This document shows, piece after piece, positions 398 to 64,000 of a stretch of DNA of 64,000 nucleotides. The stretch comes from Nitrososphaerales archaeon (GTDB lineage Archaea > Thermoproteota > Nitrososphaeria > Nitrososphaerales > Gagatemarchaeaceae): the NCBI GenBank assembly GCA_030038395.1, contig JASHOZ010000056.1, forward strand, positions 23,607 through 87,606. The letters are read 5' to 3'. Under the pieces are notes generated by a model. That model searched no databases, was not told the DNA's origin, and saw only the letters and a list, made by a program, of their open reading frames with translations. Each line of letters opens with the position of its first letter. Position 1 is the stretch's first letter. The translations under genes and the position numbers were made by a program.

Positions 398-1528
398 TCA
401 CGTCGCCCGGGGGGAACCCTCGGAACGCCCTGAGCGGACCGTGCCACGGTGACCCTCACCCGAACCGATCCTTCGCGTCTTCTCCACGATCCGGTTCCGC
501 AGCTGCCGCATGCCATCTCCGCGCGTCGCCGACGTTCTGACCGAGTCGAGTGCCGCAAACCTGTCACCAAGACTGATGTCAGCCGACCCCCGCGGAAGCC
601 GGTCGACCTTGTTGAGCACAAGCAGGACCTTCTTTGGGTCGACCGCGAGCTGCTCAAGGTTCTCGATGCAGCTCATCAACTTCGTCGTGACCGTCTCCAG
701 CGGCTCGCTCGCGTCGACCACGAGCAGGATCAAGTCGGCATACGTGAGCTCTTCCAGCGTTGACTTGAAGGACTCGACCAGATATGTCGGGAGCCTCGAG
801 ATGAAACCCACCGTGTCCGACAGCATCACCTTCTTCGAGCCAGGGAGCGCAATCGAGCGTGTGGTCGTGGAGAGGGTCGTGAAGAGGTTCGGCGACTCTT
901 CCTTCGACTCTGACGCGAGCCTGTTGAACAGGGTAGTCTTACCGCTGCTGGTGTACCCCGCGAGCGAGACGAGGGCCTCGCCCAGCTTCGCTCGTTCCTT
1001 TCGCTGCACCTCGCGACTCGTCTCCGCCTTGGCCAGCTTCTCCCTGATGAACGCCATCCTGCGCCTGAGGGCCTTGAATTTCACATCCACAGCCAGCTCT
1101 CCCATCCCCATGAACCCCGCCCGCTCGCCCGCGGTCGAGTTCCTGACCGCGTCCTTCGTCCTGGGGAGCTCGTAGCGCAGCTCGGCGAGCTGGACCTGGA
1201 GTTTAGCCTGCGCCGTCGCCGCTCTCATGGCGAAGATATTCAGAATCAGCCTCTCCCGGTCGATCACTTCGGCCCGCGCCAACCTTGCAAGGTTGTTCGC
1301 CTGCGCAGACGTGAGGCTCTCGTCGACTATGATTACGTCAGAGCCGTTCTCGTCTACGACTGCAGCAAGCTCCTGCGCCTTGCCTTCGCCGACCCCGAAC
1401 TCGGACTTCAAGACCTGCTTCAGTCCTATAACCATCGCAACGGTGTACCCCGCAGCCTTCGCGAGCTCCTCTGCCTCTCTCATCATGAAGTCGTCAGAAT
1501 ACGTCACGATTGTGGCTTTCATGGTCAC
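398..1528 (-). CDS. hflX: GTPase HflX
   Basis: 376-aa ORF. G1 'GYTSSGKTTLFNRL', G3 'DTVGF' and G4 'NKVD' follow an HflX-type N-terminal domain and the linker 'LQVQLAELRYELPR'. Confidence 0.85.
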   Translation of the reverse strand: MTMKATIVTYSDDFMMREAEELAKAAGYTVAMVIGLKQVLKSEFGVGEGKAQELAAVVDENGSDVIIVDESLTSAQANNLARLARAEVIDRERLILNIFAMRAATAQAKLQVQLAELRYELPRTKDAVRNSTAGERAGFMGMGELAVDVKFKALRRRMAFIREKLAKAETSREVQRKERAKLGEALVSLAGYTSSGKTTLFNRLASESKEESPNLFTTLSTTTRSIALPGSKKVMLSDTVGFISRLPTYLVESFKSTLEELTYADLILLVVDASEPLETVTTKLMSCIENLEQLAVDPKKVLLVLNKVDRLPRGSADISLGDRFAALDSVRTSATRGDGMRQLRNRIVEKTRRIGSGEGHRGTVRSGRSEGSPRAT

Positions 1529-14793: not shown

Positions 14794-14908
14794 GGCCGCG
14801 GTGGTGTAGTCGGGTGGCGGATGCCACCGGCACAGCTTGGTTAACATAGGAGGCTGTGGAGCACGCGCAGTCACCTTTAGATCGTGGGTTCAAATCCCAC
14901 CCGCGGCC
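14794..14908 (+). tRNA. tRNA-His (anticodon GTG) with encoded G-1 and two insertions (D-loop ~14812-14836; anticodon loop ~14860-14872)
   Basis: Hand-folded. G-1 pairs with discriminator C73. Acceptor GCCGCGG/CCGCGGC. D-stem GTGT/ACAT encloses AGTC + 25 nt (hairpin GGTGGC-GGAT-GCCACC) + TTGGTTA. Anticodon stem GGAGG/CCTTT encloses CTGTGG + 13 nt + A. T-arm GTGGG-TTCAAAT-CCCAC. Confidence 0.8.
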
Positions 14909-18758: not shown

Positions 18759-19574
18759 TCATGGCCGACCCTGATCTGTCGATAGGTTCTTGGTGAAGAA
18801 AGAAATCGTCCTCTCCCACGCGTCGTCGGCCGCGGGCTTGTTGTAGACCTCACGCCTTTCGTTGAAGAAGGCGTGCTGCACCCCCTTGTACACCTTGATT
18901 TCGAACGCCTTCCTGTACTTTACCATGTTCTCGACCAGTACAGGGATGCCTGAGTCTATGCGCTGGTCCTCTCCCGCGTATATGCCGAAGACCGGCCCTG
19001 TGATGTCCGCCACGGCCTCGATGGGACTCGGGTTGGCACCGTAGAACGGGACGGTCGCGCCGAACGGGTACATGGTGGAGAGCTGGTACGCCAGCCCACC
19101 TCCCATGCAGAAACCTGTGATGCCGAGCCTGTCGCCGTGGACCTCACTCATCCCCTTGAGGTGGTCGGTGCAGCTCAGGACGTCCTTCACCATGTCCTTC
19201 TCCATCTCTCCTCTCTTGACGAGCAGCAGGTTCACAAGTTTCCTATCTTCCTCCGACATGGTGGCCATGAGGGTCTGGAGTGTAGCGGGGTCGTTCCGCT
19301 TGTCGGGAGGGACTGTCCACATCTTCGACATCGCCCTCTCGATGTTCTTCTCAGTCAGGAAGTCCCCGAAGCGTGTGAACAGGTGGGGCGCAAGGGCGAC
19401 GAACCCTTGTTCCGCGTACCGCCTAGCCACGCCCCTGATTTGGTCGTTCAGGCCAAAAATCTCGTGTATCACGATTATGCCTGGGTGTCGCCCTGAAACA
19501 GGGCGCGAGAGATATGCCGCAATCTGCGTCCCGTCCTGACACCTGACTTTCGTTTCTTCACTCGTTATGTCCAC
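18759..19574 (-). CDS. dienelactone hydrolase family protein
   Basis: 'HPGIIVIHEIFGLNDQIRGVARRYAEQGFVALAPHLF' and the nucleophile elbow 'GFCMGGG'. The GTG start at 19574 is chosen because the upstream 141 codons of the 412-aa ORF are low-complexity and antisense to the SDR gene. Confidence 0.75.
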   Translation of the reverse strand: MDITSEETKVRCQDGTQIAAYLSRPVSGRHPGIIVIHEIFGLNDQIRGVARRYAEQGFVALAPHLFTRFGDFLTEKNIERAMSKMWTVPPDKRNDPATLQTLMATMSEEDRKLVNLLLVKRGEMEKDMVKDVLSCTDHLKGMSEVHGDRLGITGFCMGGGLAYQLSTMYPFGATVPFYGANPSPIEAVADITGPVFGIYAGEDQRIDSGIPVLVENMVKYRKAFEIKVYKGVQHAFFNERREVYNKPAADDAWERTISFFTKNLSTDQGRP

Positions 19575-20514
19575 GCGACTCACGGGAACGGTGCTCGCTA
19601 CAGACGATATTATCCGTTGCGTGACTACGCAGCCTAATAACAGCCATCCTCTTCGCTTCGGGTCGTTGGCTGGCAGGGTCTGTCTCGTCACCGGTGCGAA
19701 CTCCGGTATAGGGAGGGCAGCGTCCGCGAAGCTCGCCAAGACTGGAGTCACTGTTGTCATGGTGGCAAGGGACGAGGCAAAGGGAAGGGAGGCGCTGGCG
19801 GGAGTGAAGTCGGAGAGCGGCAACCAGTCGGTTGAGCTGCTGGTTGCAGATCTGAACTCGATGGGCTCGGTGAGGAAGCTCGCCGAGACCTTCCGGGAGA
19901 GCCACGCGTCGCTGCATGTACTGCTGAACAACGCCGGGGTGATCCTCGGCGCAAGGTCGGTCGGCCCGGACGGGGTCGAGAGCAACTTCGCCGTCAACTA
20001 CCTTTCGCACTTCCTTCTGACCAACCTGCTCATGGACACCCTGAAGGCGAGCGCCCCTTCCCGCGTGGTCAACGTGACATCTGATGCCCACTTCTCGGGC
20101 CACATCGACTTCGACAACCTGCAACTGCAGAAAGGGTATGGTGCGATGAAGGCCTATTCACAGGCGAAGCTCGCGCAGGTCCTCTTCACACGCGAACTCG
20201 CGCGGAGGCTTGAAGGTACTCGCGTCACTGCCAACTGCGTTCACCCTGGTGTGGTCCGGACGCATTGGGGCAACACAGCAGGCGGGCTCCTCGCTCTTGG
20301 AGTCAAAATCGGGCGCCCCTTCTTCAAGAGCCCTGAGCGTGGGGCGGAGGGTCCTGTCTTCCTCGCGATCTCCCCTGACGTGGACGGCGTCAGCGGCAAA
20401 TACTTCTCTGGTACGAAAGAGGCCAAGTCGTCGAAAGAGTCGTACGACGATGTCGAGGCTCGCCGCTTGTGGCAGGTGAGCTGCGAGCTCACCGGTATCA
20501 AGCCTGATGCTTGA
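19567..20514 (+). CDS. short-chain dehydrogenase/reductase (SDR)
   Basis: 'VTGANSGIG' cofactor motif and the 'YSQAK' catalytic YxxxK. The real start may be TTG at 19666 (MAGRVCLVTGANSGIG). Confidence 0.85.
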   Translation: MSTRLTGTVLATDDIIRCVTTQPNNSHPLRFGSLAGRVCLVTGANSGIGRAASAKLAKTGVTVVMVARDEAKGREALAGVKSESGNQSVELLVADLNSMGSVRKLAETFRESHASLHVLLNNAGVILGARSVGPDGVESNFAVNYLSHFLLTNLLMDTLKASAPSRVVNVTSDAHFSGHIDFDNLQLQKGYGAMKAYSQAKLAQVLFTRELARRLEGTRVTANCVHPGVVRTHWGNTAGGLLALGVKIGRPFFKSPERGAEGPVFLAISPDVDGVSGKYFSGTKEAKSSKESYDDVEARRLWQVSCELTGIKPDA

Positions 20515-20711
20515 CAACCCTGCCGCCCTTTTGGGACTGCGTTCGCCAGTCCAACAAGACCGGCCAGGAGAGGTTTAAGCAGGTTCGCTAGCTTCCGAAA
20601 GCCGGGATGCGCGTCCGGGAGGCACCGGCAAGCAGCTACGTGGGGGCGATATGCAAAAGGCTCTCGGCGACATCACGAAGAGGTGATGCAAATGGCCGTG
20701 CGCTTATCGTG

Positions 20712-21461
20712 ATGGCGAAGGACGGGAATGACGAGGACTGGGTCATCCCTGGTCCAAGGCGCGGGAAGAAAGTCGCGGCCGTGGCAGCGGTGTGCGTGGT
20801 CGTCGTAGCGGCTCTGTATTACGGAGTCCCCGTGGCAGAAGGGATCATCTTCCCGGGTCCGGCTCCCGTATGGCATACGTTCCTGTCCGTATTCAACACT
20901 AATGAAATCGAAGTATCTGGGGCCTGCTCGCTCCAAGACACGGTCTCTGTTCTTGGTCTGCCGACGTCAGACCTCGGGCCGCACACGACGGTCAGCTGCT
21001 CCTACAGGGGTCAGTCGTACATTGGGGATGTCAGCACTGACTGCGACCTGCAGGGGACGGGGACGATTCTGTCGGTCAGCGGGACGCTGGTGCCATATCT
21101 CGGGTGCAGGCTGAGCTACGCTCCATTCCTGATGACGTTCTCGGGACTCTACACGCTGGCCGGCCAAGGAAACGATTCGGTCCACGTCTACCAAGGCGAC
21201 GCTATCCTCGCCAATCTCACACTGGTGTCGAATCTCCGGAGCGAAGGCTGCTCATATCAGGATGCTGCCTCCGCGAGGACGAACGGCATCTTCGTCTGCA
21301 CCTACCTGGGCATCCCATACACGACGCCGAGCGTCCTCCAGGACTGCAATCTCGGAACGCCCATTCAGGTGAGCGGAATCCCGGCTCCAACGGGAGGGTG
21401 CGTCTTCCAGAGGAACGAACTGTACACGGCGCAGAGCACCTCATCGAGCTCAGAGGCGTAG
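20712..21461 (+). CDS. hypothetical N-terminally anchored extracytoplasmic protein
   Basis: 'KKVAAVAAVCVVVVAALYYGV' anchor followed by a Cys-rich, beta-rich domain with repeated 'C..L(Q/G)' patterns. Confidence 0.45.
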   Translation: MAKDGNDEDWVIPGPRRGKKVAAVAAVCVVVVAALYYGVPVAEGIIFPGPAPVWHTFLSVFNTNEIEVSGACSLQDTVSVLGLPTSDLGPHTTVSCSYRGQSYIGDVSTDCDLQGTGTILSVSGTLVPYLGCRLSYAPFLMTFSGLYTLAGQGNDSVHVYQGDAILANLTLVSNLRSEGCSYQDAASARTNGIFVCTYLGIPYTTPSVLQDCNLGTPIQVSGIPAPTGGCVFQRNELYTAQSTSSSSEA

Positions 21462-21496
21462 TCGCCGGACTCAGGTGAATTCGGGCACTACCTGCT

Positions 21497-22516
21497 TCAG
21501 ACGGCGGCCCCTGCTCTCCCCCGTCTGAGCAGGAGCCATGCGATGGCTGCGAGCGCGACCACCACGACGACAACTATCACCACGTAAAGGACGTCCATCG
21601 ATGACGACGACCCCGAGTTCACCGTCGTTGTGGTCGTCTGAGTCGAGGTGCTGAGTACTGTCGCCGTGCTCGTCGAGAGCTGCGTCTGCGTCTCGCTCAA
21701 GACAGATACGGATGTGACCGTGGGGCCGACTGTCTCGGTGTTCGTGAATGTATATGCCTGCACAGTCGTCACAGTGATCGTAGCGAACTGCGTCGTCGGG
21801 GAGACAAACGTCAGAGTCGACGAGTTCGTAGTCAGCGAGGTGGTCGTCGAGACAGATGTGGCAGTCGTCGTGGTGGCCACGGTGACCGAGTTTGAGATTA
21901 TCAGCTGCTGGGCTGCGACTGCCTCAACCGCCGACCCGTCATAGACTTTGATGTATTTGTAGGCCGCCGTAGCCAGGACGGGTATGGGTCCCACGACCAC
22001 GGGCGTCACGCCCGCGGGAGTGGGAGAGACAGAGCAGGCGCCTGTCCCGAGCCACCCGATATAGAACGTCCCGTTGGCGTTCGTCAGAGCAGTGAAGTGG
22101 CCAGCAGCGTTGGCACAGAAGTCGGCCACAGAGAACTTCGGCGAGTACTGCGCGTCGCCTGTTCTGTTGGATGTCTCAGTGCCCATGCTCAGTATGAGCC
22201 AGAACGTCGCAGCAGAGAACGAGACACCGCTGAAGTTGAGGGCCAGCAGGTTCGTATCAGGGTCCACCGCGGTCGTGTCGATCTTCGTCACATACATGGT
22301 GCCGAGCAGGACGGTCACATTGCTGACCGACGGCGTGAACGAGGTGGGTGTAACGACAGAGTTGACCGCTCCCAGCGAAGGCGAGCCAGTGTCGGCGCTG
22401 ACCTGCGTCACCGGGACCGCGACGAGCAGCGAGGAGAGCGCAAGTAATGAAAGGATCAGAATCGCCTTGGCCCCGGAGAGCACGCTCGCGGGCACTTGAT
22501 GCCTCGCTTTAACCAT
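21497..22516 (-). CDS. cell-surface protein with Thr/Ser-rich stalk and C-terminal TM anchor
   Basis: Signal peptide 'AILILSLLALSSLLVAVPVTQVSA', a long T/S/V repeat-like stalk, and C-terminal 'VLYVVIVVVVVVALAAIAWLLLRRGR'. Confidence 0.55.
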   Translation of the reverse strand: MVKARHQVPASVLSGAKAILILSLLALSSLLVAVPVTQVSADTGSPSLGAVNSVVTPTSFTPSVSNVTVLLGTMYVTKIDTTAVDPDTNLLALNFSGVSFSAATFWLILSMGTETSNRTGDAQYSPKFSVADFCANAAGHFTALTNANGTFYIGWLGTGACSVSPTPAGVTPVVVGPIPVLATAAYKYIKVYDGSAVEAVAAQQLIISNSVTVATTTTATSVSTTTSLTTNSSTLTFVSPTTQFATITVTTVQAYTFTNTETVGPTVTSVSVLSETQTQLSTSTATVLSTSTQTTTTTVNSGSSSSMDVLYVVIVVVVVVALAAIAWLLLRRGRAGAAV

Positions 22517-24395: not shown

Positions 24396-25346
24396 GTGCG
24401 TCCTCCCCTCTCTGGCGTGTTCGTGGTGGCAGTCTCTCCCCTCGATGAGCGGCGAGAGTTCGACCTGAAAGACTACCGCCGCCTCATAGAGTACTGTGTC
24501 GCGGCCAAGGTCGGCGGGCTCACGGTCCTCGGCGAGTCGGCCGAGCGCGACTTGCTCTCCGACGGCGAGAAGCAGGAGATTCTGGCGGCCACGTTCGAGA
24601 TGCTGGGGGGCAGACTCCCCATAGTGGTCGGGACGGGCAGCGAGAGCACAGAGTCGACCGTACGCTCTAGCATCGACGCTCAGGACAGCGGAGCGTCGGC
24701 GGTCATGATAGCCCCTCCGAGACGCCTGAGGGTAGGCTCGGGGAGCTCCGACAGCGACGCGATCTTCGAATACTTCTCTTCGGTCGGCGACAGGATAGAG
24801 ATTCCTATCGTGGTCCAGGACTTCCCACAACTCGACCGCCCGAGGATGGACGTGGACCTTATCCGCCGTCTGAACGCGGAGATATCAAATGCGCAGTACC
24901 TGAAGCTCGAAGACCCGCCGACCCCGCTCAAGATGGAGAGGTTGCGGTCTGCCACAGGCGACCGGCTGAAGGTCTTCAGCGCATACTACGGTAGGGACTC
25001 GTACTGGGACCTCGTCCACGGGGCGGTGGGCGTAATGACGTCATCCCCCACGCCAGAGTATCTCGTCGCGATGTACGACTCGTTCGCGGCGGGGGACAGA
25101 GGGAAGGCGCTCGACATCTATCTCGGCACGCTCCCGCTCGTCTACTACTGCAGCGAACTCGGCCTCGCCGTGCGCAAGGAGGTCCTCGCACAAAGGGGAG
25201 TGATTCGGGCGAGCACCATGAAGCAGAGTGAAAAGGAGCTCACAGGGGCGCAGAAGAACGAGCTTAGAGACGTGATCGCCTGGGTGGAGGACAAGCTGAC
25301 GTCGTCCTGCGGCGTCCCCCCGCTCGGCCTGGAGAAGGCCCGCTGA
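24396..25346 (+). CDS. DapA/DHDPS-family lyase (dihydrodipicolinate synthase-like)
   Basis: 'GVFVVAVSPLDERREFDLKDYRRLIEYCVAAKVGGLTVLGESAE...PIVVGTGS' is a typical DHDPS/NAL-family N-terminus. The GTG at 24396 gives MRPPLSGVFVVAV. Confidence 0.75.
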   Translation: MRPPLSGVFVVAVSPLDERREFDLKDYRRLIEYCVAAKVGGLTVLGESAERDLLSDGEKQEILAATFEMLGGRLPIVVGTGSESTESTVRSSIDAQDSGASAVMIAPPRRLRVGSGSSDSDAIFEYFSSVGDRIEIPIVVQDFPQLDRPRMDVDLIRRLNAEISNAQYLKLEDPPTPLKMERLRSATGDRLKVFSAYYGRDSYWDLVHGAVGVMTSSPTPEYLVAMYDSFAAGDRGKALDIYLGTLPLVYYCSELGLAVRKEVLAQRGVIRASTMKQSEKELTGAQKNELRDVIAWVEDKLTSSCGVPPLGLEKAR

Positions 25347-57068: not shown

Positions 57069-58997
57069 TTGTCAGATGGACAGAGGCGCTTGGCGGCGAT
57101 CATGTTCACCGACATGGTAGGCTACACCGCCCTAGGGCAGAGAAACGAGTCTCTGTCTCTCGCACTGGTGGAAGAGCACCGAAAGCTCGTGAGGCCCATC
57201 CTCGCGAGACACAACGGGAGGGAAGTGAAGACGATGGGAGATGCCTTCCTTGTCGAGTTCCCCAACGCACTAGACGCAGTCAGATGCGCCTACGACATAC
57301 AGAGGGCGGCTAGGGAATTCAACATCTCGCTCCCCGACGAGAGGAGGATACACATGCGGATAGGGGTCCACCTTGGGGATGTCGTAGAGTCGGACGGCGA
57401 CATCTCGGGAGACGCCGTGAACGTCGCTTCGAGAGTGGAGCCTCTAGCCGAGGACGGGGGCGTCTGCATAACGGGGGAGCTCTATGGCCAGGTCAGGAAC
57501 AAGATTGACCTGCGAATGTCGAGCCTTGGAGCGAAGGCGCTCAAGAATGTGGCTTCGCCGGTAGAGGTCTACAAGGTCGAGATGCCATGGGAGAGTCAGG
57601 TGGCGGACGGCGATCTCGACGTCAGGAGGGTGGCCGTCCTCCCGTTCGTCAGCCTGAGCCCCGACCCCAACGACGAGTACTTCGCCGACGGATTGACGGA
57701 AGAGCTCATCGACAGGGTGTGCCAGGTCAAGGAACTTGCGGTCATCGCCAGGACGTCTGTCATGAACTACAAGGGGGCGAAGAAGAACGCGTCACAGATA
57801 GGAAGAGAACTGAGGGCAGGCGCGCTCGTGGAGGGGAGCGTCAGGAAGGCCTCGAACAAGATCAGAGTCACGGCCCAGCTCATAAGGGCTGACACTGAGG
57901 AGCACCTCTGGTCATCGAAGTACGATAGGGACATGGCAGACGTGTTCGAGGTCCAGAGCGACATCGCAGAAAGGGTGGCCGAGGCGCTGAAGGTCCAGCT
58001 TCTCCCAGCGGAGAGGGAGGCGGTGCAGAGGAAGCCCACCGAGAGCGCAGCCGCGTACGCGCTCTATCTCAAGGGGAGATACTATTGGAATGAGAGGACC
58101 GAGGAGGGGCTGAGGAAGGCGGCCGAATACTTCCAGAAGGCGATAGACCTGGACCCCGCGTTCGCCAGGGCGTATTCCGGGCTCGCTGACACTTACTCCA
58201 TCATGAGGTTCCAAGGCTCCGCTCCCGCCCGGGAGTCGGGTGCCAAAGCCAGGGCTCTCGCGGAGAAGGCGCTGGAGATTGACGGCTCGCTCGCGGAGGC
58301 TTGCGCGTCACTGGCTTTCGTACAGGACGATGCTTTCAATTGGGAAGAGTCCGAAAGGCTCTACAGGAAGGCCATCGAGCTCAACCCAAGCTACGCGACG
58401 GGGCACTTCTGGTACAGCATCCTGCTGACGTGGCTCTGGCGGTTCGACGAAGCGGTCGAGGAGGCGAGGCGGGCGGAGGAGCTCGACCCTCTATCCCAAG
58501 CCACCTCCATCGCCCTCGGCCAAGTTCTCGTTTACGCTCGCAGGAACGACGAAGCCATCAGGCACCTTCAGGAAAGGATCAGGGCCGACCCCGGCTTCGC
58601 CTCGCCCCACTTCATACTCGGGGTCGCTTACTTCTACGGCGGAATGTACGAGAAGGCGGTCGAGGAGCTGCGCGTCGCGATCTCCATCGAGGGGCGCAGC
58701 CTCAGCCGTCCCCTGGCGGCCTTGGGGTGGTGTCTTGCCAGGCTGGGGAGGGAACGGGAGGCGAGGGAGACTCTGGAGGAGCTGAAAGGACGGAAGATCT
58801 CAAAGAGCGTCCTTGGGGCACTCTACGTGGAGCTCGGTGAGAGGGAGGAGGCAGTAAGGTGCGTCCAAGAGGCCTTCGAGGCAAGGGAGCCAGGGCTGGG
58901 CTGGATCAGCGGGATGCTCCCCCTGGATGCCCTGCGCTCTGATGCGAGGTTCGTCGCCGTGCTGGAGAGGATGAACCTGCCGACGGGTCGGCTGTAA
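57069..58997 (+). CDS. class III adenylate/guanylate cyclase fused to TolB-N-like and TPR domains (paralogue 2)
   Basis: 'RRLAAIMFTDMVGYTAL', 'KTMGDAFLVEF', 'GDAVNVASRVE', 'VAVLPFVSLSPDPNDEYFADGLTEELI' and TPR repeats. TTG start (MSDGQRRLAAIMFTD). Confidence 0.85.
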   Translation: MSDGQRRLAAIMFTDMVGYTALGQRNESLSLALVEEHRKLVRPILARHNGREVKTMGDAFLVEFPNALDAVRCAYDIQRAAREFNISLPDERRIHMRIGVHLGDVVESDGDISGDAVNVASRVEPLAEDGGVCITGELYGQVRNKIDLRMSSLGAKALKNVASPVEVYKVEMPWESQVADGDLDVRRVAVLPFVSLSPDPNDEYFADGLTEELIDRVCQVKELAVIARTSVMNYKGAKKNASQIGRELRAGALVEGSVRKASNKIRVTAQLIRADTEEHLWSSKYDRDMADVFEVQSDIAERVAEALKVQLLPAEREAVQRKPTESAAAYALYLKGRYYWNERTEEGLRKAAEYFQKAIDLDPAFARAYSGLADTYSIMRFQGSAPARESGAKARALAEKALEIDGSLAEACASLAFVQDDAFNWEESERLYRKAIELNPSYATGHFWYSILLTWLWRFDEAVEEARRAEELDPLSQATSIALGQVLVYARRNDEAIRHLQERIRADPGFASPHFILGVAYFYGGMYEKAVEELRVAISIEGRSLSRPLAALGWCLARLGREREARETLEELKGRKISKSVLGALYVELGEREEAVRCVQEAFEAREPGLGWISGMLPLDALRSDARFVAVLERMNLPTGRL

Positions 58998-59110
58998 GAG
59001 TCGTCCCGGCGCTTCGCGCCACTGAGCTGTGTCTTTTATACGCGGCAAGTCGGACGGTCGAGAACATCGGTGGAGTCGTGTCGGACGCGCAGCCCGGAGT
59101 AGTGACCTAG

Positions 59111-60001
59111 ATGCAGTCTTCGAAGTCATACCTCGTCGTCCCTGCCCGGATGAACAACGGCTCCGTCGAAGCCTGGAGCACCAAACGGCTGCCGCCCGAG
59201 CCGAGAGGAGAGTTCCGGTCGATGCGCGACGAGATCGGCAAGGCCGTGGCCGAGCTCGAGTGCGGGCCTGAGCAGGTCCTACATGGCACCTACATGTCCA
59301 GCGTCAGTGAGAGGCAACCCATCGACACGGAGAACACGCTCTTCTACAACGTCCCGACCAACTGCTTCGCAAAGTCTGCCCGCGTGGGGATTAAGTTCGA
59401 AAGGGTCTTCGCGGCGCCCCCTCTGGCGCCTCATCCCATGGGCTCGCGGGCGCTGCACTACCAGTCATACCGGCTGCTGAACAGGAGGGCCGCCTTCTCC
59501 AGCTGGTCCCTCGCCAACGTCGCGGCCTCCTTCAGCGGGGTCAGGTGTCGCTCGACATCGGTGGAAGCTGTCTGGGAGGCCATGAGAGGAGACCGAGAGC
59601 TCGCAGTGGCCACCGGCAGCCTGGGGAGCTACTTCGGGCTCAGCGTCACTGTCCGACCGCCGGCAGGAACGGCCCCTCTCAACCTCGTGAATCTCCTCAA
59701 ACCTGTTTTCGACGGCGTGGTCTCGTCCTTCCACCAGCACGACGGGACAGACGACGCGGAGCTGGGTCGGCGGGTCGCGGGTAGCTTGGAGAGCGAGCCG
59801 GAGAGGGTTTCACAGCTCCTGGTGGATGGCAGTCAGGCGGTACTTGGGAGTAGGAGGCTTCTCTGGAGAAGAGGCGACGGGGTCCAGTGGGGACCCGCCG
59901 ACGACCGGTGCGTGGCGGGGGAACTTCTTCTCGGAGAAGTGTCGGAGGGCGGATTCTACGAGTTGTCGGGGAAGCTGACGGCCGCAATTGCGACCTCCTA
60001 G
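59111..60001 (+). CDS. hypothetical protein (orphan, host-like GC)
   Basis: 296-aa ORF with balanced composition and no motif I recognise. Confidence 0.5.
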   Translation: MQSSKSYLVVPARMNNGSVEAWSTKRLPPEPRGEFRSMRDEIGKAVAELECGPEQVLHGTYMSSVSERQPIDTENTLFYNVPTNCFAKSARVGIKFERVFAAPPLAPHPMGSRALHYQSYRLLNRRAAFSSWSLANVAASFSGVRCRSTSVEAVWEAMRGDRELAVATGSLGSYFGLSVTVRPPAGTAPLNLVNLLKPVFDGVVSSFHQHDGTDDAELGRRVAGSLESEPERVSQLLVDGSQAVLGSRRLLWRRGDGVQWGPADDRCVAGELLLGEVSEGGFYELSGKLTAAIATS

Positions 60002-60072
60002 GCGTAGAAGCGAATAACTGGACGGGCCGAGTCTAGCTTATTGCTTAAAGTGCGCCTTGACTCGCCCTTGGA

Positions 60073-60456
60073 TTGGTATCTGACTTGGACGACGCCACCG
60101 CTCGGGTAGTTGAGCTGAAGCAAATGGTAAAGCAGTTCAGCGAAGATCGAGACTGGGACCAGTTCCACAGCGCAAAAGAGTTGGCGATCGGCATAGTCAC
60201 CGAGGCCTCCGAATTGCTAGGGGAGTTCAGGTTCAAATCCGATGCAGAGGTGGACGAGCTCCTTGGGAACAAAACCTCCGCCAAGAGAGTCAGAGACGAA
60301 CTCGCCGACATCCTCTACTTCGCGCTCAGACTTGCTCAGAAGTATGACATCGACGTATCGAACTCGCTCGAAGAGAAGATCACCCAGAATGCCGCGAAGT
60401 ATCCAATTGATAGGGCACGAGGCTCAAACAAGAAGTACACCGAACCCAAAGCATGA
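60073..60456 (+). CDS. MazG-like all-alpha nucleoside-triphosphate pyrophosphohydrolase
   Basis: 'FSEDRDWDQFHSAKELAIGIVTEASELLGEF' and 'VRDELADILYFALRLAQKYDID' form the ExxE...ExxD metal-binding helices of the MazG/dCTPase-type family. TTG start. Confidence 0.8.
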   Translation: MVSDLDDATARVVELKQMVKQFSEDRDWDQFHSAKELAIGIVTEASELLGEFRFKSDAEVDELLGNKTSAKRVRDELADILYFALRLAQKYDIDVSNSLEEKITQNAAKYPIDRARGSNKKYTEPKA

Positions 60457-62318
60457 GACTCTATACAGGCTCCTCTGAGCAGTTCATTCAAGACATCCTT
60501 GAGAACAAGCTGGCCGACAAGCTCAGGACGGCATACGAGAGCTACTACTACCGCCTTGCGAGCCCCCAGGAGGTCGTTTCATGGACCAACTCTCTTCAGT
60601 TTGTAAAGAACATCATCGAGTATGCATCCCTAAAGGACAACGTGCTGGTGGTGGAGTACGAGCTTCCCTACTCGAACCGTCGGATTGACTGCCTTCTATT
60701 CGGCAAAGGGGTGGATGCGTCACCCAACGCGGTAATCATGGAACTCAAACAGTGGTCGAAGGTCGAGAATTGTGATCTCGAGAACGAAGTGCTGACTTTC
60801 ACTGGAGGCGCGAACAGACTCGAGGCTCATCCCTCTTTCCAGGCTCAGGGGTACTACTCCTACCTGAAGGACTTCGTCGAGGTCTTCGGGAACAGCACCA
60901 TTAACCTTTCAGCAATCAGCTACTGTCACAACTATTCTCGCGCTTCGGATGCCATGTTCGGCCCCAAATTCCAGTCGATAGTCAAAGACTTCCCTCTGTT
61001 CGCCAAGGAAGATGTACCGGAACTTGCGAAGTACCTGAAGGCACGGCTATCAGCTGGCGACGGCCTAGAGATTCTCAGTAGATTCTCGAGCAGCCCGATA
61101 GGGCCGACAAAGAAGCTTCTCGAGCACACATCGACGATGATTAAGGGGCAAAAAGTATTCAACCTGCTCGAGGACCAGCTGGCAGCGTACTATGCCATCC
61201 TAGACAGAGCGAAGAAAGCCTCCAAGCTGAAACACAAGTGTGTGATTATAGTCCGAGGCGGCCCCGGGACTGGCAAGTCGGTCATAGCTCTGAATGTGAT
61301 TGCCGAACTACTCTCGAAGGGACAGACGGTCTTCCACGCCACAGGGTCAGCTGCGTTCACTAGCACACTCAGGAAGATAGTAGGAACCAGGGCAGCGAGC
61401 ATGTTCAAGTATTTCATCAGCTTCACCAACGTAGAGGAGAACTCAATAGACGTTCTCGTGTGCGACGAAGCCCACAGGATAAGGGCCAAGAGCGTCAGCA
61501 GGTTCACCCCGAAGGCTGAGAGGACGGACAAACCGCAGATTGACGAACTCATCGAAGCCGCCAAGGTTTCGGTCTTCTTCATCGACGACTACCAGGTGGT
61601 CAGGCCGTACGAACATGGAAGCACTGAGATGATTCGCGCCTCTGCAGCGAAGCACTTCGCCGAAGTCTTCGAGTTCGAGCTCAAGACACAGTTCAGGTGC
61701 AGCGGTTCGGGCGGCTATCTCGACTGGCTGGACAATGCGTTGGGCATACGAGAAACCGCGAACATAATGCTGACTAAGAACGAGAAGATGGACTTCCAGA
61801 TATTCGACAGCCCTCACAAGCTTTACGGGGCGATAAGACGGAAGAACGATGAGAAGCCCAACTCCGCCAGAATGGTCGCAGGCTTCTGCTGGCCCTGGAG
61901 CAATCCGAAATCTGACGGAACCCTGGTCGAGGACGTTGTCATCGGAGACTTCCGAATGACTTGGGAGGCAAAGAACGACATGAAGGTGGCTCCGGGTATC
62001 CCTCCGGCGAGACTGTGGGCTTACGACCCGCAAGGAGTGAGCCAGATGGGGAGTATCTACACCATCCAAGGGTTCGAGTTCGACTACGTTGGCGTAGTCT
62101 TTGGCGATGATTTGTCATGGAACCCCGAGTCCAGAACCTGGACCGGGAAACCTCAGAACTCCTCGGACGCTGCGGTGAAGAGGGACAAGGAGAACTTCGT
62201 TCGATACGTCAAAAACGCCTATCGCGTACTACTCACCAGGGGAATGATGGGGTGTTACGTATACTTCGTCAGCAAGGACACTGAAGACTACTTCAGATCT
62301 CTCATCCAGACGAGTTGA
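60453..62318 (+). CDS. DUF2075-type protein: N-terminal PD-(D/E)xK-like module plus Schlafen/SF1-like P-loop helicase core
   Basis: 'RRIDCLLFG...AVIMELKQW' (D...ExK), Walker A 'GGPGTGKS', 'VLVCDEAHRI' and C-terminal 'YRVLLTRGMMGCYVYF'. The ATG overlaps the MazG stop (ATGA at 60453-60456). Confidence 0.8.
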   Translation: MRLYTGSSEQFIQDILENKLADKLRTAYESYYYRLASPQEVVSWTNSLQFVKNIIEYASLKDNVLVVEYELPYSNRRIDCLLFGKGVDASPNAVIMELKQWSKVENCDLENEVLTFTGGANRLEAHPSFQAQGYYSYLKDFVEVFGNSTINLSAISYCHNYSRASDAMFGPKFQSIVKDFPLFAKEDVPELAKYLKARLSAGDGLEILSRFSSSPIGPTKKLLEHTSTMIKGQKVFNLLEDQLAAYYAILDRAKKASKLKHKCVIIVRGGPGTGKSVIALNVIAELLSKGQTVFHATGSAAFTSTLRKIVGTRAASMFKYFISFTNVEENSIDVLVCDEAHRIRAKSVSRFTPKAERTDKPQIDELIEAAKVSVFFIDDYQVVRPYEHGSTEMIRASAAKHFAEVFEFELKTQFRCSGSGGYLDWLDNALGIRETANIMLTKNEKMDFQIFDSPHKLYGAIRRKNDEKPNSARMVAGFCWPWSNPKSDGTLVEDVVIGDFRMTWEAKNDMKVAPGIPPARLWAYDPQGVSQMGSIYTIQGFEFDYVGVVFGDDLSWNPESRTWTGKPQNSSDAAVKRDKENFVRYVKNAYRVLLTRGMMGCYVYFVSKDTEDYFRSLIQTS

Positions 62319-62569
62319 GCTCTGATGCCGCAAGTCTGAAACTCAGAAATCCTACTTCAGTCACCGAGAGTTCTATGCAATCAGATGGACAGTCGACACA
62401 TCGCAATTGTGACAGTTTCTGGTCGAAGAAGTATCTGCGGTGTTCGACAGTAATCACAGGCAACCTCTTTGGAGATGTCATGTCTGGATACATCATGACA
62501 CTACTTAGCACCCAGCCATCTTGCGAGGCTTTTCGCAAGAGAAGCACTCGGCTTGAACCAGAGACTGAG

Positions 62570-62712
62570 TGCCGCGGGTCGGATTTGAGCCGACGACACT
62601 CCGGTCTTTAGCCCGACTTGCGCAGTCGATCAGCCGGATGAAGGAGACAGAACACCAGTTGGTGGATTCCGTTCTCTCCATAGCCCATATCGACAGGCTG
62701 AGCTACCGCGGC
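62570..62712 (-). tRNA. tRNA-like gene, candidate tRNA-Ile(GAU) carrying at least two insertions (143 nt), or a pseudo-tRNA
   Basis: Perfect 7-bp acceptor GCCGCGG/CCGCGGC with discriminator A, and 'TA GCTC AGCCTG' as the D-arm start. Anticodon stem TCCGG/CCGGA encloses CTGAT + ~22 nt. Variable loop GTGTC, T-arm GTCGG-CTCAAAT-CCGAC. I could not fold the D-arm 3' strand, and the T-loop starts with C instead of T. Confidence 0.5.
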
Positions 62713-62814
62713 ACGGTTCGCGACGACCTCTTCGCGCTGACTTAAGACTTTGCGCCATCGCAGAGGTTGCACGGCAACGGATTTATCGAAGAGAGAGCCG
62801 GCCAAGAGTCAATC

Positions 62815-64000
62815 TTGTCTCAGGGGCAGCGCACGCTCGCCGCTATCATGTTTACAGACGTCGTCGGCTACACGGCTATGGCCCACGAGAACGAGTCAGC
62901 CGCCCTCGCCATCCTGGAGGACCACCGGAGGCTGATACGACCCTTGTTCGTGAGCCATGGGGGCCGCGAAATCAAGACCATAGGTGACGCGTTCCTCGTA
63001 AGGTTCGGGAGCGCCCTCGACGCGACGCTCTGCGCGGCCGCCGTCCAGAGCGCCATGAACGACAGGCGGCTGGCCACGGGTGACAAGCTGTCGATCAGGA
63101 TAGGCATCCATGTGGGGGATGTCATCGAGAGCCAGGGCGACGTCCTGGGCGACGCGGTCAACATCGCCTCGAGGATCGAGCCTCTCGCCGAGCCGGGGGG
63201 CGTCTGCGTGTCCGAGCAGGTCTACGACCAGGTGAAGAACAAGGTTCCCTACGCCATGGTCAAGCTCCCTCACAGGGAATTGAAGAACGTGAGCGAGGCG
63301 ATAGAAGTGTACAGGCTGGTCATGCCATGGGAGCAGGGAGAGAAGGCTCAGGAGGCAGAGAGATACCCTCCCAACAGGATAGCGATCCTCCCATTCGCCA
63401 GTTTCAGCTCAGACCCCGAGGACGCCTTCTTCGCCGACGGCGTGACCGACGAGATAATCTCGGCCGCGGCAGGGATAGGGGGGCTGAGCGTCATCTCGAG
63501 GACCTCTGTCATAGGGTACAAAGGGAGCACGAAGAAGGTCAAGGAGATAGGCAGGGAGCTCGAGGTGGGTTCCGTCCTCGAAGGGACCTTCAAGAAGGCC
63601 GGGAACAGGATACGTGTCACGACCCAACTCATCGACGTCGCGGACGACAGGCACGTCTGGGCGCAGAACTACGACAGGACGCTGGACGACGTCTTCGCGG
63701 TGCAGAGCGACGTCGCCAGGCAGGTCGCGGAGGCACTGAAGGTCAGGATCCTCTCGCCTGAGATGGCCCGGCTCAAGAGGAGGCCCACCGAGAGCTCAGC
63801 CGCGTACTCGCTCTACTTGAAAGGAAGGTTCCTGTGGAACAAGAGGGGGCTCGAGGACATCAGAGGGGCGCTGAACTACTTCGAGCAGGCGGCAGCCGAG
63901 GACCCGGCCTTCGCCCTTGGATACGCGGGCCAGGCGGACTGCTACATCCTGCTCCGAAACAACTTCAACATCGAAGAGAAGAAGAACCTCGAGCTTGCAA
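62815..64000 (+). CDS. class III adenylate/guanylate cyclase fused to TolB-N-like and TPR domains (paralogue 3, 3'-truncated by window end)
   Basis: Absent from the ORF track because no stop is reached. The TTG at 62815 gives MSQGQRTLAAIMFTDVVGYTAM..., followed by 'KTIGDAFLVRF', 'GDAVNIASRIE', 'IAILPFASFSSDPEDAFFADGVTDEII' and the start of the TPR region. Confidence 0.85.
   Translation, partial: MSQGQRTLAAIMFTDVVGYTAMAHENESAALAILEDHRRLIRPLFVSHGGREIKTIGDAFLVRFGSALDATLCAAAVQSAMNDRRLATGDKLSIRIGIHVGDVIESQGDVLGDAVNIASRIEPLAEPGGVCVSEQVYDQVKNKVPYAMVKLPHRELKNVSEAIEVYRLVMPWEQGEKAQEAERYPPNRIAILPFASFSSDPEDAFFADGVTDEIISAAAGIGGLSVISRTSVIGYKGSTKKVKEIGRELEVGSVLEGTFKKAGNRIRVTTQLIDVADDRHVWAQNYDRTLDDVFAVQSDVARQVAEALKVRILSPEMARLKRRPTESSAAYSLYLKGRFLWNKRGLEDIRGALNYFEQAAAEDPAFALGYAGQADCYILLRNNFNIEEKKNLELA

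Follow-up and report, generated by a model that had tools for sequence, protein, structure and literature searches.

A probable tRNA-Phe(GAA) gene interrupted by three introns, one of them inside the anticodon, in a soil-type Nitrososphaerales archaeon

Gene structure and identity

The minus strand of positions 62570-62712 most probably carries a tRNA-Phe(GAA) gene with three protein-spliced introns at positions 18/19, 24/25 and 35/36 (probability about 0.93). The window in which it lies is a 64,000-nucleotide stretch of DNA. The host is an uncultured soil-type Nitrososphaerales (thaumarchaeal) archaeon, and its assembly comprises 1.49 Mb in 69 contigs with 61.7% GC and is 90.7% complete. An exact match to 30 nt of the tRNA 3' part is found in 31 public contigs, mostly labelled as Nitrososphaerales, Nitrososphaerota or Thaumarchaeota MAGs and several with soil or peat isolate names. 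Read on the minus strand from 62712 to 62570, the gene is GCCGCGGUAGCUCAGCCUG ucgauaugggcuau GGAGAG aacggaauccaccaacugguguucugucuccuu CAUCCGGCUGA ucgacugcgcaagucgggcuaa AGACCGGAGUGUCGUCGGCUCAAAUCCGACCCGCGGCA.

The initial annotation had described a multi-intron tRNA with about 65-70 extra nucleotides at this place, and the description agrees with what we find. The gene is 143 nt long and its mature form 74 nt, so the extra sequence measures 69 nt. The acceptor halves GCCGCGG and CCGCGGC, followed by the discriminator A, are present, as are GCUC after UA, the UCCGG/CCGGA stem enclosing CUGAU and the hairpin CGACU-GCGCA-AGUCG, the T arm GUCGG-CUCAAAU-CCGAC with C at position 54, and the long hairpin GGAGAGAAC...CACC-AACU-GGUG...GUUCUGUCUCC. 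The introns number three, and the hairpins seen earlier are intron structures. The observation that no clean 3' strand of the D-stem exists is right for the unspliced DNA only. The strand GAGC is there, and it seemed missing because intron 2 splits it into GAG and C.

The exon and intron boundaries were obtained by matching the window sequence to the mature form of tRNA-Phe in a relative of the same genus, G024, with at most three deletions and no use of structure. Only two solutions exist. Both remove nucleotides 20-33 and 40-72 of the gene and they differ by 1 nt at intron 3, where either 84-105 or 83-104 is removed. Exon 1 (62694-62712, minus strand, 19 nt) covers positions 1-18 with the acceptor strand GCCGCGG, UA, the D-stem strand GCUC and AGCCUG of the D-loop, and is invariant in 18/18 genomes of the genus or order. 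Intron 1 (62680-62693, minus strand, 14 nt, UCGAUAUGGGCUAU) interrupts the D-loop at position 18/19, the sole placement that restores the mature sequence. Exon 2 (62674-62679, minus strand) has only the 6 nt GGAGAG, which are G19, G20, A21 and the D-stem bases G22, A23 and G24; the alignment of tRNA-Phe genes shows no variation in its GGAG columns. Intron 2 (62641-62673, minus strand, 33 nt) is uniquely placed at position 24/25, within the 3' strand of the D-stem (GAG|C). Exon 3 (62630-62640, minus strand, 11 nt, CAUCCGGCUGA) contributes C25, A26, UCCGG, C32, U33 and the first two anticodon bases, G34 and A35 (62631-62630, minus strand). Intron 3 (62608-62629, minus strand, 22 nt, UCGACUGCGCAAGUCGGGCUAA) lies within the anticodon at position 35/36. 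Exon 4 (62570-62607, minus strand, 38 nt) supplies A36, G37, A38, CCGGA, the variable loop GUGUC, the T arm GUCGG-CUCAAAU-CCGAC, CCGCGGC and A73, and CCA is not encoded.

The spliced 74-nt product agrees at every base with the G024 gene that has no introns (GCCGCGGUAGCUCAGCCUGGGAGAGCAUCCGGCUGAAGACCGGAGUGUCGUCGGCUCAAAUCCGACCCGCGGCA), which ARAGORN calls tRNA-Phe(GAA) and which scores 63.3 bits with the Rfam tRNA model. The spliced product itself is also called and folded as tRNA-Phe(GAA) by ARAGORN. The identity set for phenylalanine, known from yeast tRNA-Phe and from E. coli work, consists of G20, G34, A35, A36 and A73. The spliced sequence has the tRNA-Phe features anticodon GAA, G37, G20 and A73. 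Its D-loop is AGCCUGGGA, which contains G20, its discriminator is A, and its anticodon loop is CUGAAGA with G37, as in the orthologues that lack intron 3.

This tRNA-Phe(GAA) is the sole Phe gene detected in the 90.7% complete assembly, where neither DNA search nor ARAGORN finds a second Phe-like tRNA. Two other ARAGORN calls labelled Phe, with introns of 123 and 328 nt, were rejected; they have no tRNA-like ends and are without the T-arm and acceptor sequence of the tRNA-Phe gene and its orthologues. The unspliced gene is missed by ARAGORN and by Rfam in both gathering and E-value modes, even at E = 10. Because both programs miss it, automated annotation would report tRNA-Phe as absent, or might mislabel the locus as Ile. 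The minus strand of the gene folds at -61.3 kcal/mol (z = -3.3), and 1 of 200 shuffles is equally good.

Splice motifs and competing identities

Bulge-helix-bulge (BHB) motifs at the junctions, which the initial annotation had named as a check, were looked for at the sites fixed by homology. We used the geometry of a 4-bp central helix with two 3-nt bulges and a cut after the second bulge base, verified by hand on a canonical-position intron of the host tRNA-Leu(CAA). At all three junctions the central helix is complete (4/4), and the sites fall into the BHB or relaxed-motif class. Of the shuffled sequences, 2.1% give a 4/4 central helix at a fixed junction, and 0 of 20,000 give all three together. 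For intron 1 at 18/19 the helix is AGCC/GGCU with bulges UG|U and AU|G, an inner helix of 2 bp and an outer helix of 3 bp, which is bulge-helix-loop like. Intron 2 at 24/25 has GGAG/CUCC with bulges AG|A and UU|C and forms a full hBHBh' motif; its inner helix has 7 consecutive pairs by script count and is followed by the CACC/GGUG hairpin. Intron 3 at 35/36 has GGCU/GGCU with bulges GA|U and AA|A, an inner helix of 5 bp and an outer helix of 1 bp, and is HBh' like. Placing intron 3 at 34/35 also restores the mature sequence, but the central helix is then 1/4, and we prefer 35/36 because only this site yields a BHB core. The canonical 37/38 reading (loop CUGAUC...A) fails to restore the orthologous mature sequence and has a central helix of 2/4 when read by eye.

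The three BHB cores do not overlap and are able to coexist in one precursor structure; therefore no order of splicing is forced in this genome. The minimum free energy of the precursor is -61.3 kcal/mol, compared with -51.5 kcal/mol when the three cores are enforced. Energy folding alone does not select the BHB conformers, as both the minimum-energy fold and RNAalifold favour other registers. In the region of intron 3, RNAalifold favours an intact anticodon stem, and the covariation of this BHB is weak, with 66 of 500 shuffles scoring equally well.

The initial annotation had read the anticodon as GAU, provided that the 5' boundary was as drawn, and proposed a multi-intron tRNA-Ile with an anticodon-loop intron starting after CUGAU, a reading to which we give almost no weight. 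The unspliced DNA indeed has UCCGG followed by CUGAU. However, orthologues without intron 3 read UCCGG-CUGAAGA-CCGGA, and by the match to such intron-free forms the anticodon is GAA, the only one that restores the orthologous mature sequence. A junction after the U would produce the loop CUGAUGA with G37, a mismatch to the intron-free orthologue, and the strong BHB candidates include no junction of this kind. In Ile tRNAs base 37 is A, as seen in the loop CUGAUAA of the host tRNA-Ile(GAU), a separate gene whose presence elsewhere in the genome had been suggested as a check and which we find on contig C24. The D-loop GGGAGAGC with G20, together with A73, agrees with Phe. With intron 3 between A35 and A36, the U after GA is the first base of the intron, and the DNA reads GAU by accident. 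GAA would form only after ...G34-A35 is ligated to A36-G37....

The locus could alternatively be a dead relic, a pseudo-tRNA or attachment-site remnant with insertions, while a working tRNA-Phe resides in the 9% of the genome that is unassembled. That the standard finders ARAGORN and Rfam miss the locus, that the assembly is 90.7% complete and that C54 is atypical would all suit such a relic. We nevertheless consider it highly improbable, since most relatives have exons with 100% identity to these and inserts that diverge and yet keep the BHB geometry, and an inactive copy would not retain three 4/4 central helices. Furthermore, the single-contig genomes G015 and G010 show just one Phe-type locus each, which carries introns in G015 and has a spacing consistent with one in G010, and a promoter-like box lies upstream of the gene in this genome and in most relatives.

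Processing, relatives and other tRNA genes

The promoter-like box AAAGTCTTAAGT (62740-62751, minus strand) is centred about 31 nt upstream of the first tRNA base and combines a purine-rich BRE-like part with a TATA-like CTTAAG. A similar box with the consensus AAAnnCTTAAnT is found at a similar distance in most of 31 aligned related tRNA-Phe genes, and CTTAAG or CTTATA boxes also precede the host genes for tRNA-His, tRNA-Tyr and tRNA-Ile. The box presumably acts as the promoter. Transcription from it would produce a precursor of at least 143 nt, in which the archaeal splicing endonuclease EndA would cut after the second base of each bulge. The ligase RtcB would then join the four exons (19 + 6 + 11 + 38 nt) to the 74-nt tRNA, to which CCA would be added after ligation. 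We infer this whole pathway of transcription and splicing.

Both a splicing endonuclease and an RNA ligase are encoded. The EndA catalytic unit is found on contig C48 (80 bits with PF01974, together with PF02778; best structure match 1a79) and makes up the last ~165 residues of a 385-aa open frame (L052 625-1782). A PF01974 search of the assembly did not detect a second, structural (beta) endonuclease subunit. The RtcB gene lies on contig C36. Its match (19219-22029, minus strand) is broken into two pieces, separated by about 1.4 kb, in a single open frame of 1027 aa, an arrangement that suggests an intein in this ligase gene.

The 5' and 3' parts of the tRNA-Phe gene recur in 31 of 41 related genomes by DNA search. 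Our comparison covers 42 distinct gene sequences, 41 of them parsed from two alignments and one, L031, handled separately. The exons are nearly invariant among relatives, and the introns diverge in both sequence and length. The genes have from zero (G024) to four introns, located at 15/16, 18/19, 22/23 or 24/25, and 35/36. The most widespread site is 18/19, where most relatives have introns of 14-26 nt with differing sequence. The D-stem intron is located at 22/23 in most genomes and at 24/25 in this genome, L031, G004/G022 and G026. The 35/36 intron is limited to a subgroup made up of G021, G016, G017, G018, G015, L034 and L031, in which its loops vary.

Despite the divergence of the introns, the intron side of the exon-intron helix is preserved, as GGCU, GGUU or GGCC at 18/19, as CUCA, CUCG or CCCA at 22/23 and as CUCC or CUCU at 24/25. 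Exon-intron covariation is seen at position 17a, where U17a-A or U17a-G of most genes is replaced by C17a-G in L026. The eight distinct spliced sequences have a cloverleaf that is 99.4% paired, with pairs 27-43, 28-42 and 50-64 changed on both sides. Where one gene has both an 18/19 and a 22/23 intron, the central helix of the latter (UGGG, positions 17a-20) is 2-3/4 before removal of the 18/19 intron and 4/4 after it. As the 22/23 helix forms only once the 18/19 intron is gone, removal would be ordered in such relatives.

The closest relative of the gene is found in a soil MAG (L031 1825-1992, contig DASPVF010000014.1). It is 168 nt long and has four introns, at 15/16 (21 nt), 18/19 (24 nt), 24/25 (27 nt) and 35/36 (22 nt), which is one above the maximum of three stated in the reviews of archaeal tRNA introns cited below. 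To be noted, C54 in place of the near-universal U54 is found in 17 of 18 tRNA-Phe genes (16 of them of the same genus) and also in the host tRNA-Tyr; G026, which belongs to another family, has U54.

tRNA genes carrying as many as three introns have been described from Crenarchaeota and Thaumarchaeota (PMC8450103, PMC3218864), including introns at non-canonical positions and their ordered removal (PMC8450103, PMC3218864, PMC4090602, PMC4390854). Pyrobaculum calidifontis tRNA-Glu(UUC) and P. islandicum tRNA-Pro(UGG) have three introns each (PMC4390854, PMC8450103). Closely spaced archaeal introns may require ordered removal, and in some Thaumarchaeota a tRNA gene can contain several non-canonical introns, for which tRNAscan-SE 2.0 has a clade-specific BHB model (PMC8450103). 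The tRNA-Phe locus adds another case to this known phenomenon and opens no new mechanism, the phenomenon being established in both groups. It resembles the multi-intron tRNAs of Thermoproteales in having up to three short non-canonical introns with BHB or relaxed BHB motifs, in its predicted dependence on a splicing endonuclease and RtcB, and in being missed by standard finders. In contrast to those hyperthermophilic crenarchaea, the host here is a mesophilic soil-type Nitrososphaerales, and its tRNA-Phe has an intron inside the anticodon triplet (35/36) and none at the canonical 37/38. With the thaumarchaeal cases it shares the phylum and the phenomenon, as well as the ordered removal predicted for relatives with 18/19 and 22/23 introns. 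Neither this gene nor the series of tRNA-Phe genes with zero to four introns was found in the cited literature on archaeal tRNA introns. Zero to four introns of one gene within one genus make a compact natural data set on intron gain, loss, movement and ordered splicing, which includes two alternative sites 2 nt apart and one anticodon-splitting intron.

With introns allowed, ARAGORN reports many intron-containing tRNAs in the genome. It misses the host tRNA-His, and the host tRNA-Tyr and tRNA-Ile are missed or drawn wrongly by ARAGORN and Rfam. A second interrupted tRNA in the window (14794-14908, plus strand) scores 42 bits with Rfam and is not found by ARAGORN. Read by eye it is tRNA-His(GUG), with encoded G-1 and C73, a D-loop insert of about 30 nt and a further 13 nt inserted after CUGUGGA. 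A multi-intron tRNA-Tyr(GUA) at the overlapping ends of two contigs (C18:9-146 and C17:52-190) is missed by both programs and has the same T arm as tRNA-Phe, C54 included. The tRNA-Ile(GAU) on C24 (918-1011, minus strand) has a D-loop intron of about 21 nt, and ARAGORN draws a wrong acceptor stem for it because this intron is ignored. The only ARAGORN call in the window is a 91-nt tRNA-Arg(CCG) (24523-24613, plus strand), which is without Rfam support and looks like a false positive. A sequence starting with GCCGCGGUAGCUCAGCC... on contig C7 (about 520-670, minus strand) has no tRNA call and may be a further heavily interrupted tRNA gene.

Gene neighbourhood and possible integration

The neighbours of the tRNA-Phe gene encode a MazG-like protein, a Schlafen-group-3 (DUF2075) helicase, an orphan ORF and cyclases. 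The initial annotation suggested the tRNA as a possible integration site of the low-GC cassette beside it. That the cassette with the MazG-like and Schlafen-type helicase genes (60073-62318) integrated site-specifically into the 3' end of tRNA-Phe is a claim in addition to the identity of the gene and does not compete with it. It is unproven here, and we hold it to be unlikely, though not strongly so. In its favour, the cassette begins about 250 nt past the 3' end of the tRNA, the region of 60.0-62.6 kb has 50-55% GC against ~62% for the genome, and only 10 of 41 related genomes have the helicase, which in G023 and G007 lies 8-13 kb from tRNA-Phe. In relatives the final 22 nt of the tRNA also recur as direct repeats 1.3, 2.05 and 15.4 kb downstream and enclose accessory genes. 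On the other hand, no partial copy of the tRNA 3' end exists in the window (16-mers, up to 2 mismatches) or in the assembly (22-mer, up to 5 mismatches), and no tyrosine-recombinase integrase (PF00589) is matched anywhere in the assembly. The repeat-bounded islands of the relatives likewise show no recognisable integrase, the cassette is not beside tRNA-Phe in G024 or G005, and the surroundings of the tRNA lack any conservation, L031 being one example.

Matches of 37 nt on contigs C17 and C18 were considered as attachment-site copies and rejected, as they are the T arm of the multi-intron tRNA-Tyr(GUA). A plasmid collection searched with positions 59000-64000 gave no match, and the orphan ORFs of this locus and of the relatives' islands had no hits in PHROGs.

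Integrative elements of archaea and bacteria use tRNA genes as attachment sites. The 22-nt 3' terminus of tRNA-Phe reads GCUCAAAUCCGACCCGCGGCAC, and exact or near-exact copies are found downstream on the same strand in relatives. In G021 the copies (L055 333-354 and 2383-2404) are 2,050 nt apart with one cyclase gene between them, and in G017 (L004 197-218 and 1501-1522) they are 1,304 nt apart. In G005 (L056 515-535 and 15902-15922) they span 15.4 kb with accessory cargo and two further partial copies at about 9790 and 11250. The relatives thus resemble tRNA-integrated elements in that 22-nt 3'-terminal direct repeats bound accessory DNA downstream, whereas this window has neither a repeat nor an integrase. 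In the genus, tRNA-Phe thus resembles a hot spot of recombination; for this window, integration is not established.

A more speculative proposal, which we think improbable, is that the last 22 nt, from the T-loop to the discriminator, serve as the attachment site for small cargo islands with no recognisable integrase, which would hold adenylate-cyclase and accessory genes and possibly the defence-like MazG-helicase cassette, while the 5' two-thirds of the gene gain, lose and shift BHB introns. If true, this would point to an unrecognised recombinase or recombination route.

Two paralogous adenylate/guanylate-cyclase genes (57069-58997 and 62767-63999, both on the plus strand) bracket the cassette and the tRNA, and the former also has TPR repeats. 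They share about 74% DNA identity over parts of their length, with starts about 5740 nt apart, and the cyclase family has roughly 2-17 copies per genome where it is present in the genus.
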